A DNA stretch of 64,000 nt from Pseudomonadota bacterium (GTDB lineage Bacteria; Pseudomonadota; Gammaproteobacteria; Eutrophobiales; Eutrophobiaceae), in contig JACZSJ010000001.1 of assembly GCA_022574295.1 (NCBI GenBank), forward strand, positions 786 to 64,785, read 5' to 3'. The notes beneath the pieces are model-generated. The model searched no databases and was not told where the DNA came from. It saw nothing but the letters and a program-made list of their open reading frames with translations. The translations under genes were made by a program, and so were the position numbers. Below are positions 1 through 19,421 of the stretch, one piece after another. Positions within the stretch are counted from its first letter, which is position 1. Each line of letters opens with the position of its first letter.

Positions 1-493
1 TACACGATACCTTCTCACAGAGGTGGCGAGCTCGGGCACAGCAAGATCTATTGCAGCAAGATTGCCCGCATTTTTGCCTTTGGCTGGTAAAACAGGAACA
101 ACGAATGATTTGAGAGACAGCTGGTTTGCTGGCTTTGGGGATGATGTTCTCGGGGTGATTTGGGTTGGACGTGATGATAATCAATCATCACGGTTGACAG
201 GTTCAAGCGGTGCTTTACAAGTCTGGATAGATATCATGCAGGATCTGAAACCACGACCATTATCATTGATAACACCTGAAGGCGTTGAATGGGCTAAAAC
301 GTTACAGGGAAAGCGTGTGCCAGATAATTGTCCGGGGGCAGTCACCTACCCATTTGTGCAGGAGTACCTACCTGAATATTCAGGAACATGTCAGAATGAT
401 CCTGTTCAAAACAATCGTATTCATGATATTAAAACAGAAAGAAAAGATGCAAAGAATGAAACTACCATACGTCGGCATTTCAATATTCATTAA
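1..493 (+). CDS. mrcB: Penicillin-binding protein 1B, C-terminal part (5' end lies outside the window)
   Basis: The translation contains the transpeptidase KTGTTND motif and resembles the PBP1B C-terminus (KTGTT..WFAG..VGRD). The reading frame is open to position 1. Confidence 0.65.
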   Translation, partial: TRYLLTEVASSGTARSIAARLPAFLPLAGKTGTTNDLRDSWFAGFGDDVLGVIWVGRDDNQSSRLTGSSGALQVWIDIMQDLKPRPLSLITPEGVEWAKTLQGKRVPDNCPGAVTYPFVQEYLPEYSGTCQNDPVQNNRIHDIKTERKDAKNETTIRRHFNIH

Positions 494-1774: not shown

Positions 1775-2584
1775 TTAATTAATAGCGTAGGCGCCATAAC
1801 CCACAACCCTGTCTTTGGTCCCTGCAGTATCCCCTGAGTTTCTCAAGTCAAGCATTTTAACTTTCAGATGTTTATTTCTTGCAAGCTGTAATAGACCACG
1901 CATGGGCATACACCCACAAGCCTGTTGCGGTCCGATTGATTCCAGATGTAAATTTTCAATCGCTTTACTGGTAGACAAATCTAGCTGCTGTGCTGTTTCA
2001 TAATCATGGAAATGACTTAGATCAGAACTGATAACGACAAGCGTATTATCATTTCCCCATAAAATTTCCAGAACTTCTTCAACTTCTTCAGGAGAGGCTT
2101 CACCAACGACGATGGGTATTAATTTAAAACGATCAAGCACAAGCTGCAGAAAGGGTAGATGTACTTCAATACTATGTTCCTCTGCGTGTGCTGCATCAAC
2201 CACTGAAACTTGTGACAAGTTTCGTATTGAATCATATGAATCCTGATCAATTTCAATCTTGCCCAAGGGGGTTTCATAATAATCAACAGAACTTAATGCC
2301 AGTCCCTTTAAATACACTCTGTGTGCAGGACCTAACAATACGACACGATTTATTTTTTCCTTTACAGACTGCAAACTAGTGTAAGCTATTGCGGCTATCG
2401 GTCCTGAATAGATCAATCCAGCATGTGGTGCAATAATCGCCTTTGATGGTGGTGGTATTTCCTCAACGTCGTTGAGGAGAGATTCAACCATCAGTTCCAG
2501 TTCAACAGGATTAGCTGGATAGAATTGTCCCGCTACCGCAGCCGGTCTGATGGTGCTTTTTATTTTGTTTTGACTATTATTCAT
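1775..2584 (-). CDS. AmmeMemoRadiSam system protein B (MEMO1 family)
   Basis: MEMO1-type N-terminus (AGQFYPANP, PHAGLIYSG). Start taken at the internal Met (MNNSQ) of the 274-aa ORF. Confidence 0.75.
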   Translation of the reverse strand: MNNSQNKIKSTIRPAAVAGQFYPANPVELELMVESLLNDVEEIPPPSKAIIAPHAGLIYSGPIAAIAYTSLQSVKEKINRVVLLGPAHRVYLKGLALSSVDYYETPLGKIEIDQDSYDSIRNLSQVSVVDAAHAEEHSIEVHLPFLQLVLDRFKLIPIVVGEASPEEVEEVLEILWGNDNTLVVISSDLSHFHDYETAQQLDLSTSKAIENLHLESIGPQQACGCMPMRGLLQLARNKHLKVKMLDLRNSGDTAGTKDRVVGYGAYAIN

Positions 2585-2635
2585 ATATGCGGTGCACAAA
2601 CCGGTGATTAACCATTGTGATAATTATAGGGTGTT

Positions 2636-3739
2636 TTGGAACAGCTTGCAGAAATGGTGACTAAAGTAATGAACTCAGTCGTGAGCACAAAATACTGGCA
2701 TGTCCTTGAAGATGGCCGGGTGCAGTGTGATGTTTGCCCGCGGGCATGTAAATTGAAAGAAGGACAGCAGGGACTTTGTTTCGTACGCGAATGCAGGGAT
2801 CAACAAATTGTTCTGACAACCTATGGTCGCTCAAGTGGATTTTGTATCGACCCCATTGAGAAGAAACCCTTAAACCATTTTCTACCGGGTACGCCGGTGC
2901 TTTCATTTGGCACCGCTGGATGCAATTTAGCCTGTAAATTTTGCCAGAACTGGGATATTAGCAAGTCCCGTGAAATTGACACTTTGGCTGATGCTGCATC
3001 ACCGGAACAACTGGCAAATGCAGCAAGTCAATTAAACTGTCGCAGTATTGCATTTACCTACAATGACCCGGTGATTTTTCATGAATATGCCATTGATGTT
3101 GCGCAGGCCTGTCATGAAAAAAATATAAAAACGGTTGCAGTTTCTGCTGGTTACGTTTGCGAAGAACCGAGAGAAGAATTTTATCAGTATATGGATGCAG
3201 CCAACATCGATCTGAAGGCCTTTACTGAACGTTTTTATCATCGTGTAACCGGTAGTCACCTTGCTCCTGTATTGGAGACACTGTCGTACCTTAAACATGA
3301 AACCGACGTCTGGTTTGAAATAACTAATTTAGTTATTCCTGGAGAAAATGATTCGGTGAATGAATTTGAAGAAATGACACAATGGATTATGGATAATCTT
3401 GGTCCTGATGTACCCATTCACTTTACCGCCTTCCATCCGGACTGGAAAATGCTAGACAAACCCGCAACGAGACCAGAAATATTGATCAAAGCCCGTGAAA
3501 TTGCACTAAAGAATGGAATACACTATGCGTATACAGGGAATGTGCATCATGAAGCGGGAGATACCAGTTTTTGTCACCAGTGTGGTGAAAAATTAATTGT
3601 TAGAGATTGGTATGAACTGAAATATTGGAATTTATCCGCGAAAGGAGAATGTCTAGCTTGTGGTGAACCATGTGCTGGTGTCTTTGAGGAAACTCCCGGC
3701 ACCTGGGGAGCAAAAAGGCAGCCTGTTCGTCTCGCTTAG
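2636..3739 (+). CDS. AmmeMemoRadiSam system radical SAM enzyme
   Basis: Carries the radical SAM CX3CX2C motif (CNLACKFCQNW) and the N-terminal KYWH..DGRVQCDVCPRAC motif typical of this family. It is divergent from the A/B genes. The start could also be 2654 or 2669. Confidence 0.8.
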   Translation: MEQLAEMVTKVMNSVVSTKYWHVLEDGRVQCDVCPRACKLKEGQQGLCFVRECRDQQIVLTTYGRSSGFCIDPIEKKPLNHFLPGTPVLSFGTAGCNLACKFCQNWDISKSREIDTLADAASPEQLANAASQLNCRSIAFTYNDPVIFHEYAIDVAQACHEKNIKTVAVSAGYVCEEPREEFYQYMDAANIDLKAFTERFYHRVTGSHLAPVLETLSYLKHETDVWFEITNLVIPGENDSVNEFEEMTQWIMDNLGPDVPIHFTAFHPDWKMLDKPATRPEILIKAREIALKNGIHYAYTGNVHHEAGDTSFCHQCGEKLIVRDWYELKYWNLSAKGECLACGEPCAGVFEETPGTWGAKRQPVRLA

Positions 3740-3789: not shown

Positions 3790-3866
<77 letters not shown>

Positions 3867-4088
3867 AATGAAATGAGTTAGGGAATTTGGTAATTCGCCC
3901 TGGCGCGGAGCGCATGTCGGACTCGGTTGTTTAATAACAGGCGAAGGTCGTAGGTTCAAATCCTACCCCCGCTACCAAATGAAATGAGTTAGGAAATATG
4001 GTAATTAGGCCTGGCGCGGAGCGTATATCGGGCTCGGTTATATAATAACTGGCAAAGGATACAGGTTTAAAACCTGTCTCCGTTGCCA
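3867..4088 (+). repeat. Two decayed tandem pseudo-copies (period ~111 bp) of the preceding tRNA-Met gene
   Basis: Copy 2 (about 3903-3976) keeps an intact 3' half (CGAAGGTCGTAGGTTCAAATCCTACCCCCGCTACCA) but has a degenerate D-arm and anticodon arm. Copy 3 (about 4012-4088) is further degraded (T-arm ACAGGTTTAAAACCTGT, 3' end CCGTTGCCA). All three copies share the spacer AAATGAAATGAGTTAGG.AAT.TGGTAATT. Confidence 0.7.
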
Positions 4089-4233
4089 AAGTTTCTGAAG
4101 GGCTCCATTAGGGGCCTTTTTTACAGGCTTTCCAGAATTATTTGTCGGATGGTTTAGAAACTGGTGGTTTTAAGATGAGCGGCTATACTGCGCGTAGATT
4201 ATTTTGAATTTTAGAAGTGGGCCTTGTGCCCAT

Positions 4234-4430
4234 TTTTTATGTACAGGATGTACGGTATGCCGCGGGTGCATGGATGCACAGGAGCGGCGATGTACATAGG
4301 AGAACCTCTAATTAAGTCAGAGGTTCCATAGAAGTACGGTATGCCGCGGCCGCATGAACATCTTACAGGAAGTATTATTGTCACGAGAGGACGGGAGTTC
4401 GTAGCGACTGCACATGAGTGGCGGTTTGTA
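4234..4430 (+). repeat. Intergenic repeat element, copy A (upstream of rimP)
   Basis: Shares two modules with 17894-18062: TTTTTATGTACAGGATGTACGG, and GTATGCCGCGG.TGCATG.A...CAGGAAGTATTA.TGTC.CGAGAGGAC.GGAGT.CGTAGCGACTGCA...GAG.GGCGG. It has its own internal hairpin (GAACCTCT..AGAGGTTC) and begins right after a short terminator-like hairpin (4219-4240). Confidence 0.7.
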
Positions 4431-4434
4431 ATAA

Positions 4435-4890
4435 ATGCATAGTCAAAATAGTGATCTTATTGAGTTGTTAGAACCCGTTGTGACGGCACTGGGTTACGAA
4501 ATGCTTGGTATTGAGTATTTCAAACAAAAGGATGGTTCATTACTAAGGTTGTATATAGACCATGAGTCTGGAATCACGTTGCATGACTGTACAAAGGTGA
4601 ATCATCAGGTGATTGGTGTGCTTGACGTTCACGATCCCATTAAAGAGAGGTATCACCTGGAAATTTCATCACCAGGTTTGGATAGGCCTTTGTTTACGCT
4701 AGAACAGTTCGAGCGTTATCTGGGTCAGGAAGTGAAGATGAAGTTTCGGGAGAAACTTGATGGACGTCGAAAGATTAAAGGCGTAATCAAGGCAGTAGAA
4801 GAGAAAGCAGTAGTCATCAGTGAGGATGGTGTTGATTATTTAATCCCTGCTGATGTGATTGATTTGGCACATTTGGTACCAAAAATATAA
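4435..4890 (+). CDS. rimP: Ribosome maturation factor RimP
   Basis: 151 aa with RimP-like sequence (LEISSPGLDRPL) and the conserved position upstream of nusA. Confidence 0.85.
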   Translation: MHSQNSDLIELLEPVVTALGYEMLGIEYFKQKDGSLLRLYIDHESGITLHDCTKVNHQVIGVLDVHDPIKERYHLEISSPGLDRPLFTLEQFERYLGQEVKMKFREKLDGRRKIKGVIKAVEEKAVVISEDGVDYLIPADVIDLAHLVPKI

Positions 4891-13240: not shown

Positions 13241-13314
13241 CAAATCAGATAGTGGTTTGAATGTTAACCCGTTCTTCGCTTAATACCGTTAGTACCAGAT
13301 AGAACAGATGTTAT

Positions 13315-13389
13315 ATACCCAAACTACTTGGAAATGCTGAATGCTGAATGCTGAACTCTGAATCCTGCACCTCCAAGTAGTTTGGGTAT
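13315..13389. promoter_or_regulatory. Perfect 18-bp inverted repeat enclosing (GCTGAAT)x3, immediately 5' of the ECF sigma gene
   Basis: ATACCCAAACTACTTGGA (13315-13332) is the exact reverse complement of TCCAAGTAGTTTGGGTAT (13372-13389). The 39-nt loop contains GCTGAAT three times. Confidence 0.6.
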
Positions 13390-13402
13390 AGACTTCATTG
13401 CT

Positions 13403-13963: not shown

Positions 13964-15047
13964 GAAACCGGAAGACAACAAACAAGACGATCAGATATTT
14001 GAAGATTATCTACAGGGTGGTTCCTCTCTGTCCGGGGTTTATCGCGCTGAAGGAAAAGTACGACCACCAGCACATCTCGATAAAGCCATTCTCTCAGCGG
14101 CAAATGAGGCCGTCAAACCAGAACAAATCTCAAAGGTGGCATACAGTCCTTTTGCCAGGAACTGGTATGTGCCGGCATCGATGGCGGCCGTATTGATGTT
14201 ATGTGTTGGTCTGGTATTTACCATCTACAAGGACAGCGGACATATATTATTAACGCCACCGAAAAGTGAATATGATATTGATGCCCAGGTAGCACCGATG
14301 AAATTTGATGAATCAGGAGAAAAAAATAGACAAGATAAATACGTAGAAGAAATCGCTAAGGAAGCTGAAATGCCTGTGCATGTGATATCGGAAGAAAACA
14401 AACCTGCCGCTTCATCAATAGAAGCATTCGATATGGAAGAATCAGATTTTCAGCAGAGGCCTGCGAGCAGGATGCTCCTGCGAGAAAAAGTGACAGAAAT
14501 GGATGATGCCCTGCTGCCAGAAACAGTCGATGAAATGGTTCCAGGAAAAGATGTATCAGATCAGACCATGCGTGACTCCCTTTACAGCCCTGAGAGACTG
14601 GATGATTCAGGCCGCCGGGAAGCAGCGAAAACTAAGAAACAAAAACAATTGGATGTGGGCGATCTGGATAACAAATTAGGTGAAATGGAGTTGAAAACCA
14701 TTGAACAGGGGATAGGGGTAAATTCAGATCAGGAGATGCGTTACAGACAGACAATGGATGATCTGCAAAGACGAAATGAATCATTGAAAGAAGAATCATT
14801 TAAGAAAGAGATTCTTGACGATGATCAGGCCACTGCAGGATTTGCTGAGCAGGAAAAAGCGATAGGTGATGAAATGATGACACCGGAGCAATGGCTGAAA
14901 CAGATTAATAATTTATGGGTATCAGGGGAACACCAGGCCGCCGAAGAAAACCTTAAACAATTTTTTGAAGTCTATCCGGATTACTCAATTGAAAACATAA
15001 AAACCATTCTAGATCCGCAGATAGATCTGATGCAATACATAAGATAG
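13956..15047 (+). CDS. Putative membrane-anchored anti-sigma factor
   Basis: Its start overlaps the sigma gene stop by 8 nt. It has a short cytoplasmic N-terminus, one TM segment (AAVLMLCVGLVFTIY) and a long acidic extracytoplasmic region. Assigned by context only. Confidence 0.45.
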   Translation: MAKKPEDNKQDDQIFEDYLQGGSSLSGVYRAEGKVRPPAHLDKAILSAANEAVKPEQISKVAYSPFARNWYVPASMAAVLMLCVGLVFTIYKDSGHILLTPPKSEYDIDAQVAPMKFDESGEKNRQDKYVEEIAKEAEMPVHVISEENKPAASSIEAFDMEESDFQQRPASRMLLREKVTEMDDALLPETVDEMVPGKDVSDQTMRDSLYSPERLDDSGRREAAKTKKQKQLDVGDLDNKLGEMELKTIEQGIGVNSDQEMRYRQTMDDLQRRNESLKEESFKKEILDDDQATAGFAEQEKAIGDEMMTPEQWLKQINNLWVSGEHQAAEENLKQFFEVYPDYSIENIKTILDPQIDLMQYIR

Positions 15048-17494: not shown

Positions 17495-17848
17495 ATGAGC
17501 AATATTATAGAACAGCTTGAGGCAGAACAAATGACACGAGAAATACCGGATTTTGCTCCGGGTGATACGGTCATTGTTCAGGTCAAGGTGAAAGAAGGGC
17601 AGAGAGAACGTCTGCAGGCATTTGAAGGTGTTGTGATCGCGAAGAAAAATCGTGGCCTGAATTCAGCCTTTACTGTTCGTAAAATTTCTCATGGAGAAGG
17701 TGTCGAACGTGTCTTCCAGACATACAGCCATGCGATTGCAAAAATCGAAGTAAAACGTCGTGGTGCTGTTCGACGTGCCAAATTGTATTACATGCGTGAG
17801 CGCACGGGTAAGGCAGCCAGGATTAAAGAAAAAATCAAATCTAGCTAA
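17495..17848 (+). CDS. rplS: 50S ribosomal protein L19
   Basis: 117-aa L19. Confidence 0.9.
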
Positions 17849-17874
17849 GCTTTATTTGTATCGTATCTTTGGAA

Positions 17875-17901
17875 AGGCCTGCTCTGCAGGCCTTTTTTTA
17901 T
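17875..17901 (+). terminator. Rho-independent terminator after rplS
   Basis: AGGCCTGCTCTGCAGGCCT hairpin followed by TTTTTTTA. Confidence 0.75.
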
Positions 17902-18062
17902 GTACAGGATGTACGGTCGGAAAAGGCTCCTGCAATTCCGACATTTCCGCCATCCATGGCGGTCGTATGCCGCGGCTGCATGGACGACATACAGGAAGTA
18001 TTAGTGTCGCGAGAGGACAGGAGTCCGTAGCGACTGCAGAGGAGCGGCAATGTAATAGAATA
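17894..18062 (+). repeat. Intergenic repeat element, copy B (between rplS and the convergent aldo-keto reductase gene)
   Basis: Shares the same two modules as copy A. Its central module is a different perfect palindrome, CCGCCATCCATGGCGG. Confidence 0.7.
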
Positions 18063-18099: not shown

Positions 18100-19092
18100 T
18101 TATCTCGTACTACAGTTATGTTCCGTTACTTCTTCGTTACGATCGGTGGCTGGTGGAGGGGTAGGTGAAAGCGCTGAAATCTCTGCCCGTAGTTCTTCCG
18201 TCATGCTGATTTCTACGGATTTAAGCGAGTCTTCAAGCTGTATCAAATTACGTGCTCCGATGATGGGTGCAGTGACTGCAGGGTGGCTACTGACCCAGGC
18301 GACTGCCAGTGACGCTGCGCTGTAACCACGCTCTTTGGCAAAATCTGAAAATCTCTCCGCAACTTGAAAATCTGTTTTCGCTCCGTAGCGAACCTGGTAA
18401 GTTTTGTTCTCCATCAAACGTCCGCTTTCAGGTCGCTTATTAATACCATATTTCCCTGTAAGTAAACCGCCACCCAACGGGCTGTATGGCATAACCGCCA
18501 GACCTTCAGCAGCGGCCATGGGCAAAATTTCAACTTCTGCCTGACGCTTAACAAGATTATACATTGGCTGTATACAGCGAAATTTCGGCAAGTCATTTTT
18601 AGCAGAGATACCCAACGCCTTCATGACTTGCCATGCTGCGAAATTACTTGCGGCTGGATACCTTATTTTACCTTGTTGTACCAATGTATCGAGGGCACCG
18701 AGAGTGTCTGCCAAATCTGCGTATTCATCGAATTTATGAATATAAAATACATCAATATAGTCTGTTTTAAGACGCTTTAGACTTTCTTCGACTGCAGAAA
18801 GTACGTGTTGCCGTGTGGCCCCTCGAGCATTGATATCTTCACTCATTGGATAATAGGCTTTACTGGTAATAATAATTTCATTTCTGCATGAAGAAATCAG
18901 TTTGCCAAGTATTTCTTCAGCTTTGCCTTTCGAATAGACATTGGCGCAATCGAAGAAATTGATCCCGGCATCACGGCAGTGATTGAACATTTGTTTAGAC
19001 ATCTGCTCATCTGCGTCGCCACCAAAGGACATAGTCCCGAAGCATAATTGCGATACGCGTTCGCCTGTGTTGCCGAGTAATTTATATTCCAT
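18100..19092 (-). CDS. Aldo/keto reductase (Tas/YajO-like NADP-dependent oxidoreductase)
   Basis: N-terminal MEYKLLGNTGERVSQLCFGTM and typical AKR length. Start taken at the internal Met. Confidence 0.75.
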   Translation of the reverse strand: MEYKLLGNTGERVSQLCFGTMSFGGDADEQMSKQMFNHCRDAGINFFDCANVYSKGKAEEILGKLISSCRNEIIITSKAYYPMSEDINARGATRQHVLSAVEESLKRLKTDYIDVFYIHKFDEYADLADTLGALDTLVQQGKIRYPAASNFAAWQVMKALGISAKNDLPKFRCIQPMYNLVKRQAEVEILPMAAAEGLAVMPYSPLGGGLLTGKYGINKRPESGRLMENKTYQVRYGAKTDFQVAERFSDFAKERGYSAASLAVAWVSSHPAVTAPIIGARNLIQLEDSLKSVEISMTEELRAEISALSPTPPPATDRNEEVTEHNCSTR

Positions 19093-19421
19093 GACATAAT
19101 TCCTTATATCCACTTTGGGTCGTTTGTTGCTCCTAGTTGCATATATCTGAACGTCCGTATATGGACTCCTTCTCAACAGGGCAACGCACATTTTAATCTT
19201 ATAGCAAAAAGATGGAGTGTTGAATATGACTTACAGAACTCGAATAAAATAGTCAGCTGAACACGACTGCATGGATGCAGGACGACTTCAAGGATGGAGG
19301 AGGTAGAGAATGTCTGGAACACATTCTCGAGGCAGAACGAATCAGGAGACAGAGTCGAGAAAGATGAGATGTGGGCCAGTTATTCTTATCCCTTCAGAGG
19401 AAGAGTGCGGTATCATTGTTT

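Follow-up and report, generated by a model that had tools for sequence, protein, structure and literature searches.

A modular palindromic repeat array behind the rplS terminator of a gammaproteobacterium, probably one of a dispersed intergenic family with CsrA-like loops

Introduction

What is the element that fills the space between rplS, the gene of ribosomal protein L19, and a convergent aldo-keto reductase gene in contig JACZSJ010000001.1 (assembly GCA_022574295.1) of a gammaproteobacterium of the Eutrophobiaceae? The DNA analyzed here, hereafter the window, is a stretch of 64,000 nt of this contig (positions 786 to 64,785). A preliminary description had regarded the element as the second copy (copy B) of a mosaic intergenic element whose first copy (copy A, here locus A) precedes rimP, and had proposed that conserved outer modules enclose a central stem exchanged like a cassette, as in a modular structured RNA or a protein-binding site. 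We lean towards a different answer, somewhat probable in our judgment: copy B would be an array belonging to a dispersed family of modular, palindromic intergenic repeats in Gammaproteobacteria, a functional counterpart of the palindromic extragenic repeats known as REPs and the bacterial interspersed mosaic elements (BIMEs), and its mimicry of the binding sites of the regulator CsrA would be unexplained or incidental.

Results

Composition of copy B

The basic unit of the family (S unit) is about 51 nt long and presents, in this order, AU right after a T-run, a small hairpin (hp1, GUAC-AGGAU-GUAC), the linker GGUA and a second hairpin (hp2), in which a 6-bp outer stem, a GG/AGGA internal loop and a 4-bp inner stem are capped by an AUGGAU loop. 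Units occur singly or in tandem, with boundaries of the form ...GCGGCGAUGUACAGG / AUGUACGGU...; nesting of inverted units (module I) is seen between hp1 and hp2, and some hp2 hairpins have an elaborated apex (module X).

Copy B has two modules in common with the region 4230-4425 of the window. A repeat search of the window paired 17891-17917 with 4230-4256 at 96% identity (5' module) and 17965-18048 with 4339-4422 at 86% (3' module), in agreement with the outer modules first proposed, and a probe of the 3' module matched just these two sites of the window, with none expected from shuffles. The extent originally given, 17894-18062, holds the sequence as it was described, but the array begins at 17900, directly 3' of the T-run of the rplS terminator, and ends near 18058. 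It was correctly placed between convergent genes, rplS (+, 17495-17848) and the aldo-keto reductase gene (-, stop near 18100). The difference in the center, previously taken for a single hairpin, is a 47-nt module of two hairpins in copy B (17918-17964) and an 82-nt composite in locus A, which combines what remains of an S unit with an additional hairpin and a second hp1 in degenerate form.

In copy B, the stem of hp1 is GUAC(A)/(U)GUAC and the loop contains GGA. Module I is formed by a hairpin CGGAA..UUCCG with GCUCCUGC in its loop, the linker ACAUUU and the hairpin CCGCCA-UCCA-UGGCGG, which is the palindrome; across loci the linker is ACUUCC or ACAUUU and the second hairpin CCGCCA-UCCN-UGGCGG. 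The two loops show GGA when read on the minus strand (GCAGGAGC, AUGGAU), and module I read on that strand is a family unit, in which the hairpin with the AUGGAU loop comes first and the one with the GCAGGAGC loop second. Since module I is, on the opposite strand, a unit of the same repeat family, copy B is composed of hp1, an inverted unit and an extended hp2 (module X).

The central palindrome CCGCCATCCATGGCGG (17947-17962, 7-nt arms, 2-nt spacer) is present and perfect, and has no second copy in the window except for one match with two mismatches in a coding region (14172-14187). It had been called unrelated to the other sequences, which does not hold: module I was found in at least 14 other loci with covarying stems. 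Its orientation relative to hp1 is constant (24 of 25 occurrences), and it is placed between hp1 and hp2, at times in tandem. Nine of its 13 base pairs have changed on both sides and 91.8% of the cells are paired, a value that none of 500 shuffles reached. It had also been asked whether the palindrome recurs as a binding site; it is never free-standing and appears only within the inverted module inside arrays. It is, consequently, a family module, neither a foreign cassette nor an independent binding site.

Module X consists of an outer stem UGCCGC/GCGGCA and a second stem CUGCA/UGCAG around two hairpins with the loops AGGAA and AGGA, and its 3' internal loop holds AGAGGAGC. Homologues were found at two other loci (L015 and L003; L-numbers are labels of compared loci or contigs), and the consensus fold of four sequences is without double-sided changes. 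Behind it stands a degenerate half hp1, which marks the array end.

Copy B folds more stably than its shuffles (z = -2.9 on the plus and -3.7 on the minus strand), and both strands fold equally well. A promoter scan returned no promoter-like sites in it and the element abuts a terminator, which bears out the earlier opinion that it is unlikely to be a promoter; a terminator of its own was not found at its 3' end. The rplS terminator, with a GC-rich stem (AGGCCUGC/GCAGGCCU) and the loop UCU, was missed by a consensus terminator scan and is clearly shown by RNAfold. It is the anchor that the array abuts and lies outside the repeat proper, and the terminator stems at copy B, locus A and other loci are unrelated in sequence. 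The features of the window and of the compared loci, together with the matches of R1, a covariance model of the repeat unit that was run on the window, are collected in Table 1.

Table 1. Features of copy B, locus A and related loci (window positions unless an L-number is given; MFE, minimum free energy; MAG, metagenome-assembled genome; TIR-MITE, miniature inverted-repeat transposable element with terminal inverted repeats)
Feature	Position	Strand	Basis or remark
rplS intrinsic terminator	17871..17899	+	RNAfold -17.9 kcal/mol; 7-T run at 17893-17899
hp1 of copy B, AUGUACAGGAUGUACGGU	17900..17917	+	folds as hairpin; R1 match
R1 match at hp1 of copy B	17900-17931		24.1 bits; alignment passes over most of hp2
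Inverted module I of copy B	17918..17964	+	recurrence in other loci, stem covariation, fold
Extended hp2 (module X) of copy B	17965..18052	+	86% identity to 4339-4422; MFE fold
R1 match to part of module X of copy B	17987-18050		11.9 bits, weak match
Degenerate half hp1, AAUGUAAUAG (cf. GAUGUACAGG)	18049..18058	+	unit junctions in strain variants L002, L007, L136
Solitary hp2 apex CUGCAUGGAUGCAG	19267..19280	+	R1 partial match, 10.1 bits, model positions 28-41
Intrinsic terminator abutted by locus-A array	4213..4238	+	RNAfold -12.0 kcal/mol; 6-T run
Canonical S unit (hp1 + hp2) of locus A	4239..4290	+	R1 81.6 bits, E = 2.5e-16
hp1 of locus A, loop enlarged by extra hairpin (GAACCUCU...AGAGGUUC)	4288..4337	+	direct repeat D8, spacing 84
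Module X of locus A (3' module of copy A)	4338..4425	+	repeat pairing with copy B
S unit in IS91-like ORF	L023 ~3230-3281; L072 1667-1718; L112 ~320-375		Sedimenticola MAGs
IS110-family element	L128-L131, about 2240-3300		either orientation
TIR-MITE loci of CAXMRQ01	L016, L019, L025, L053, L056, L065, L075, L106

Distribution of the family

One genome per species was scanned for the exact 18-mer of hp1 (AUGUACAGGAUGUACGGU); the counts given here are lower bounds. Further copies do exist, contrary to what would have counted against the preliminary description: at least 119 loci in about 86 species assemblies, nearly all of them Gammaproteobacteria, and at least 120 contigs of the JGI metagenomes. 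Carriers include Nitrincola, Marinobacterium, Amphritea, Motiliproteus, Neptunomonas, Bermanella, Colwellia, Thalassotalea and Rheinheimera, as well as Halioglobus/Haliea, Sedimenticola, Solemya symbionts, Thiolapillus, Stenotrophobium and many other Gammaproteobacteria; a few of the genome matches look like contamination or chance. The 18-mer is common to several bacterial orders, and its spread among Gammaproteobacteria is patchy. The window organism has no close relative among these carriers: coding DNA aligns at about 66-70%, yet the repeat units of the window organism and of carrier genomes are 80-96% identical.

Up to eight exact 18-mer loci per genome were present among the matches listed, a second, separate array lay in the same 8 kb at about 4-5 of 100 loci, and the window contains two loci and one fragment of the family in 64 kb. 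This density (2 per 64 kb; second array in about 5% of the 8-kb loci) suggests a copy number of tens per genome. Plasmid and phage collections gave no blastn match and only one of 2.9 million viral contigs contained the 18-mer, so that carriage by plasmids or phages is unsupported by these searches. Rfam searches of the window, copy B and 12 related loci, at the gathering score and with a permissive threshold (E <= 10), returned only tRNA and noise; CsrB/Rsm RNAs, TwoAYGGAY, group II introns and ribozymes were thereby excluded as model matches. A literature search with the repeat sequence strings and for terminator-associated repeats found nothing relevant, and the family has apparently not been described so far.

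Position behind terminators

Array starts could be evaluated at 114 genome loci and on 114 metagenome contigs. A canonical terminator (hairpin followed by at least four T) is abutted at 55 of the former and 65 of the latter, and a weaker terminator-like hairpin at 12 and 13, so that the array directly follows a terminator or a terminator-like hairpin with its T tail in 67/114 and 78/114 cases, respectively. Other repeat modules stand in front at 14 genome loci and on 6 contigs, and TT precedes the unit in 86 and 96 cases. Arrays start at terminator T-runs and are oriented as the upstream gene; the strand of the downstream gene is divided about 50:50. Furthermore, paired arrays between convergent genes face each other, each oriented with its own upstream gene (L036 2635-2952; L091 3471-3880; L219 6022-6178).

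The upstream neighbors in the window are the L19 gene and a tRNA-Met gene. Elsewhere they include genes of L20, L9, S15, GreA, a sigma factor, GlnA, IlvC, thioredoxin, bacterioferritin, GyrB and tRNA. All-against-all clustering of 1189 open reading frames (ORFs) from 119 eight-kb flanks (of the loci listed) gave no recurrent neighbor gene. A linkage to tRNA genes was discarded, as the array stands just behind a tRNA in only 1/60 loci. csrA is absent from the window and the loci, which is uninformative.

Stems, loops and likeness to CsrA sites

For hp2, 43 distinct units were collected by a pattern that did not require complementarity. Double-sided changes were found in 10 of 14 pairs and 93% of the stem cells are paired; none of 500 shuffles was as high and slid partners pair at just 15-54%. 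In the inner stem, GC, CG and UA freely replace one another. A GCAGGAGC loop on different stems is found in other hp2 classes, and hp1 variants covary as well (GCAC-AGGAC-GUGC, GCCC-AUGGAU-GGGC). Stems are thus kept by compensatory change, and loops keep GGA. Stem mismatches left no mark of an RNA strand, with six G-U against six A-C. The period of the units differs between arrays (50, 51 and 52 nt); because it is not consistently a multiple of three, a protein-coding repeat was rejected. In this respect, what the preliminary description called a modular structured RNA was right as to the modular build and the real, compensated hairpins, and not as to an RNA of two copies specific to one genome.

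GGA lies in the loop of the first hairpin after hp1 in 87/133 distinct genome units and 73/111 metagenome units, compared with 73/665 shuffled controls. A and GGA are retained, but the base ahead of GGA may be U or G or be absent (loops UGGA 44, GGGA 11, AGGA 11), and unit classes with different stems all retain GGA in the loop. GGA-loop hairpins reach 10.3 per kb of array on the sense strand and 3.6 on the antisense strand, with a background of about 1.5-1.9 per kb. In addition, hp1 contains CAGGAUG, the repeat of CsrB, and is one base short of RUACARGGAUGU, the SELEX consensus for CsrA (PMC7652899). The apex of hp2 is an A-N-GGA-N hexaloop with a C-G closing pair (C-AUGGAU-G), and 26 nt separate the GGA motifs of hp1 and hp2, a spacing inside the bridging range of a CsrA dimer, 10-63 nt (PMC7652899). 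A related species has an orthologous array at rplS in which the GGA motifs have decayed (CAUGAAUG, AGAAGAGC; L133/L134).

Variation between strains and insertion sequences

Contigs with 100% identical L19 differ in the interval between rplS and the reductase gene, where one to four different units are found: the arrangement of the window alone, the same arrangement preceded by one or two more 51-nt units, or a further unit of about 100 nt. Relatives with 93-95% L19 identity keep an array at the rplS terminator, partly decayed or interrupted by an insertion sequence (IS). At locus A, strains with identical RimP also vary, from one to four tandem 84-nt units, and a 124-nt segment of the window (terminator plus one unit, with GAGCGGC direct repeats at its borders) is absent from other strains with identical RimP. 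Arrays gain and lose units between near-identical strains. The proposal of a cassette-swapped stem was therefore abandoned, copy B being a variable array of a dispersed family whose unit combinations at rplS differ among strains with the same L19.

An empty rplS site was not recovered, as all close relatives carry the array. In the nearest relative free of an array (L135, 90% L19 identity) the spacer is unrelated, so that the comparison defined no insertion junction at rplS. At another orthologous site, hp2 is present in L026/L048 and there is none in L119.

In three Sedimenticola MAGs (Table 1), an S unit interrupts an ORF for an IS91-like transposase, and the frame is restored by removing about 47 nt (...WVISLPKRLRY / ...MQDADLAGR...). 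Its junctions are similar to the T-run and to hp1 (TT / AUGUAC... and ...GGCGAUG / nnnCAGGAUGC), the downstream one (CAGGATGC) mimicking hp1. Downstream of rplS in relatives, an IS110-family element (DEDD_Tnp_IS110 + Transposase_20) interrupts the hp2 apex directly behind CATGGAT, and an exact 22-nt remnant of its end, TGAACGTCCGTATATGGACTCC, stands upstream of the reductase gene at 19148-19169 of the window, which suggests that this element targets the hp2 loop of the repeat. The MAG CAXMRQ01 has at least eight copies of a classical TIR-MITE (GGAGTCTGTCGGACTTAGG ... CCTAAGTCCGACAGACTCC) with hp1 and GCAAU-GCAGGA-loop modules inside. The repeat unit itself was rejected as a MITE: its ends (AUGUAC... 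/ ...GCGGCG(A)) are not inverted repeats, and single-unit loci show no consistent target-site duplication. Metagenome scaffolds L001 and L004 have runs of N inside the array downstream of rplS (about 3470-3560); the repeat breaks short-read metagenome assemblies.

Discussion

The family resembles REPs, BIMEs and REPINs in its short imperfect palindromes, which contain an internal loop and whose stem has a conserved head 5' of it at a distance of a few bases, in its extragenic position at gene 3' ends, in the mosaic arrays in both orientations, in the copy-number differences between strains, and in being a target of IS110 elements. The repeat DNA would be non-coding and non-autonomous. Units would persist, and spread between terminators, by duplication and deletion combined with short-homology recombination or template switching, the common T-tract providing the left-hand homology and hp1-like or GAGCGGC-like sequences the right-hand one; the alternative to short homology would be a dedicated enzyme that recognizes the hairpin. 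The junctions observed, a T-run on one side and an hp1-like sequence on the other, suggest short-homology recombination or template switching. The repeat may be tolerated because of its position behind terminators, and a read-through or leader transcript would expose several hairpin-loop GGA motifs of the type bound by CsrA/RsmA.

Several points weigh against this reading. Neither a mobilizing enzyme nor a clean empty site came to light, and the route of insertion is thus one that we only infer. The estimated copy number is below that of classical REPs, and the conserved head is GTAC (GTAC-GGT), whereas the REPs associated with REP-associated tyrosine transposases (RAYTs) have GTAG or GTGG (PMC2817692). 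Moreover, selfish DNA is not expected to hold the 18-mer and the loops near-invariant across orders. This conservation of loops and hp1, while the stems drift, is the strongest unexplained point; it would imply a conserved loop-reading partner, for which CsrA fits the motif exactly. The excess of GGA in the first loop points the same way, in a sample that the search by exact 18-mer skews towards conserved hp1.

The arrays might be functional CsrA/RsmA-binding RNA modules, transcribed by read-through or as the leader of the downstream gene (rimP at locus A), their RNA being a distributed CsrA sponge or placing the flanking mRNA under CsrA control. We regard this as possible and clearly less probable than a REP/BIME counterpart. 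It agrees with the match and spacing of the hp1 and hp2 motifs, with the constancy of A and GGA around a variable base, with the GGA loops of all unit classes and their density (10.3 against 1.9 per kb), and with the strong expression of many upstream genes (L19, L20, L9, S15, tRNA, GreA, GlnA). There are also precedents, since small RNAs (sRNAs) produced by transcription past a first terminator in Escherichia coli rrn operons bind CsrA in vitro (PMC8144298) and pairs of AYGGAY hairpins are predicted CsrA binders (PMC4333381). However, a site right behind efficient-looking terminators is unsuited to an expressed sponge, and the arrays have neither a promoter nor a 3' terminator of their own. 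The inverted units, a fixed arrangement, give UCC instead of GGA on the sense strand, and their presence is independent of a convergent downstream gene (5 '+' versus 3 '-'). The decay of GGA in the orthologous rplS array, the lack of a G-U over A-C excess and the patchy distribution among Gammaproteobacteria also speak against it.

The comparison with the known sponges CsrB/CsrC and RsmX/RsmY/RsmZ leads to the same balance. Repeated GGA-loop hairpins, the literal CAGGAUG, the A-N-GGA-N hexaloop and a spacing fit for a CsrA dimer are common to both. Unlike these RNAs, the arrays start at the terminator of another gene, have no GacA/UvrY box, occur at an estimated dozens of loci per genome instead of one to five, and include inverted UCC-loop units; the five Rfam models gave no match at the gathering score or at E <= 10. 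Given the GTAC head without a nearby RAYT on the one hand, and the missing promoter, terminator and model match on the other, we file the family under neither REPs nor Csr sponges.

A combination of both ideas can be advanced tentatively, with a little less confidence than CsrA-binding modules as such: the family might consist of mobile or self-propagating CsrA decoys, whose read-through RNA titrates CsrA or brings neighbors (rimP-nusA-infB) under Csr control, and in which inverted UCC-loop units could mask GGA loops as antisense or kissing partners. If so, marine and sediment Gammaproteobacteria would have a dispersed, evolvable layer of the Csr system.

A REP family in the strict sense, that is, single-stranded DNA hairpins copied by a cognate HUH tyrosine transposase (RAYT or another of the IS200/IS605 type) that inserts them 3' of a T-rich target, seems unlikely to us. 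A conserved head (GTAC) located 5' of an imperfect, internally looped palindrome and a few bases from it, the alternating, BIME-like orientation of units and the hairpin targeted by an IS110-family element, as REPs are by IS621 and ISPpu9, would all be in line with it. So would the strictly oriented insertion 3' of T/TT, a relation to the target that IS200/IS605 elements have likewise. Nevertheless, no recurrent family resembling Y1 transposases, and no RAYT, was found in the 119 eight-kb flanks of the loci listed. REPs co-diverge with their RAYT and differ by species, whereas here one 18-mer extends across several orders, and the head is not GTAG/GTGG. Direct tandem arrays with a period of 50-52 nt are atypical of REPs and commoner here than alternation, which module I shows in a fixed orientation (24 to 1). 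Further differences from REPs and BIMEs are the extra small hairpin hp1 ahead of each palindrome, the abutment of units on the terminator T-run in one orientation, an estimated copy number of tens and not hundreds, and loops that are invariably GGA.

A host function at the DNA level at operon ends, for instance through binding of gyrase, IHF or a different nucleoid protein, or through a roadblock located behind terminators, in line with proposals for BIMEs (precedents cited in PMC2817692), would suit arrays at gene 3' ends, often between convergent genes, and modules in both orientations; we hold it to be quite improbable, since covarying stems and conserved loops imply a single-stranded hairpin and not a duplex site, and a duplex site needs no fixed orientation to the upstream terminator. 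Least probable of all is a genome-specific structured RNA or protein-binding site in two copies with a central stem exchanged like a cassette: the two window loci are indeed alike in their outer modules and different in the center, and copy B does fold better than shuffles, but the same modules exist in at least some 86 other species genomes, the center recurs as a family module, whole units come and go between strains, and both strands fold equally.

Other systems share single traits with the family. BOX elements of Streptococcus pneumoniae and the rhizobial intergenic mosaic elements (RIMEs) are intergenic, have few types of modules with a variable number of central ones, and form stable secondary structures; unlike the present family, they are not tied to terminator T-runs or GGA loops, and sequence and hosts are unrelated. 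TwoAYGGAY (Rfam RF01731) comprises pairs of AYGGAY-loop hairpins predicted to bind CsrA (PMC4333381), and the variants L113 and L017 have two AUGGAU loops, but even these gave no model match at E <= 10 and the context differs. The E. coli sRNAs rrA, rrB and rrF also lie just behind a first terminator, from which they are transcribed by read-through, and are bound by CsrA in vitro (PMC8144298); unlike the dispersed modular repeat, they are single conserved sRNAs with their end at a second terminator. Class C group II introns of bacteria are likewise inserted just downstream of intrinsic terminators in one orientation, whereas the 51-nt unit has no intron domains, no reverse transcriptase ORF and no Rfam group II match.

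Should copy B be an array of a REP/BIME-like family, many Gammaproteobacteria would hold an unannotated repeat family that marks intrinsic terminators with base-pair precision, which implies insertion or recombination directed by terminators, or else a function tied to read-through. Its loops would copy the recognition motif of CsrA and be conserved across orders, while its stems drift and compensate. It would also cause length differences between strains beside core genes (rplS, rimP-nusA-infB), and IS110 elements would use it as a landing site. The family would offer a testable link between REP-like repeats and a global post-transcriptional regulator, and the covariance model is now available for annotating these assembly-breaking regions.

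Locus A and other features of the window

The S unit of locus A is 88-96% identical to units of distant genomes. The enlarged hp1 forms with hp2 an 84-nt unit, of which a related strain (L143) has three to four tandem copies, and module X stops about 10 nt short of the rimP start codon at 4435. In the region 4123-4289, downstream of tRNA-Met, some 115 nt have an intrinsic terminator on either side (4097-4122, 4213-4238), and the distal part of this region (second terminator and one repeat unit) is missing in other strains. The region might represent a gene for a small RNA or have arisen by recombination. Upstream of it, at 3831-4090, there are two 111-nt tandem copies and a degenerate third, each with the 3' end of tRNA-Met (gene at 3790-3863). 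Strains with identical RimP have from zero to two of them (none in L139/L144, one in L137, two in L142), and they could have been left by integration at the tRNA or could represent a tandem-repeat polymorphism.

The solitary apex CUGCAUGGAUGCAG beyond the reductase gene, located in the leader of the gene that follows, probably derives from the family as a fragment. It is followed, within 19267-19310, by a GGA-rich stretch (CAGGAC, AAGGAUGGAGGAGG), about 90 nt upstream of a gene for a 182-aa DNA_binding_1 (MGMT-like) protein, and this region is either a repeat-family fragment or a CsrA-type leader. Finally, an inverted repeat unrelated to the family was observed at 13314-13390, with 34-nt arms that are 82% complementary and a 9-nt spacer.

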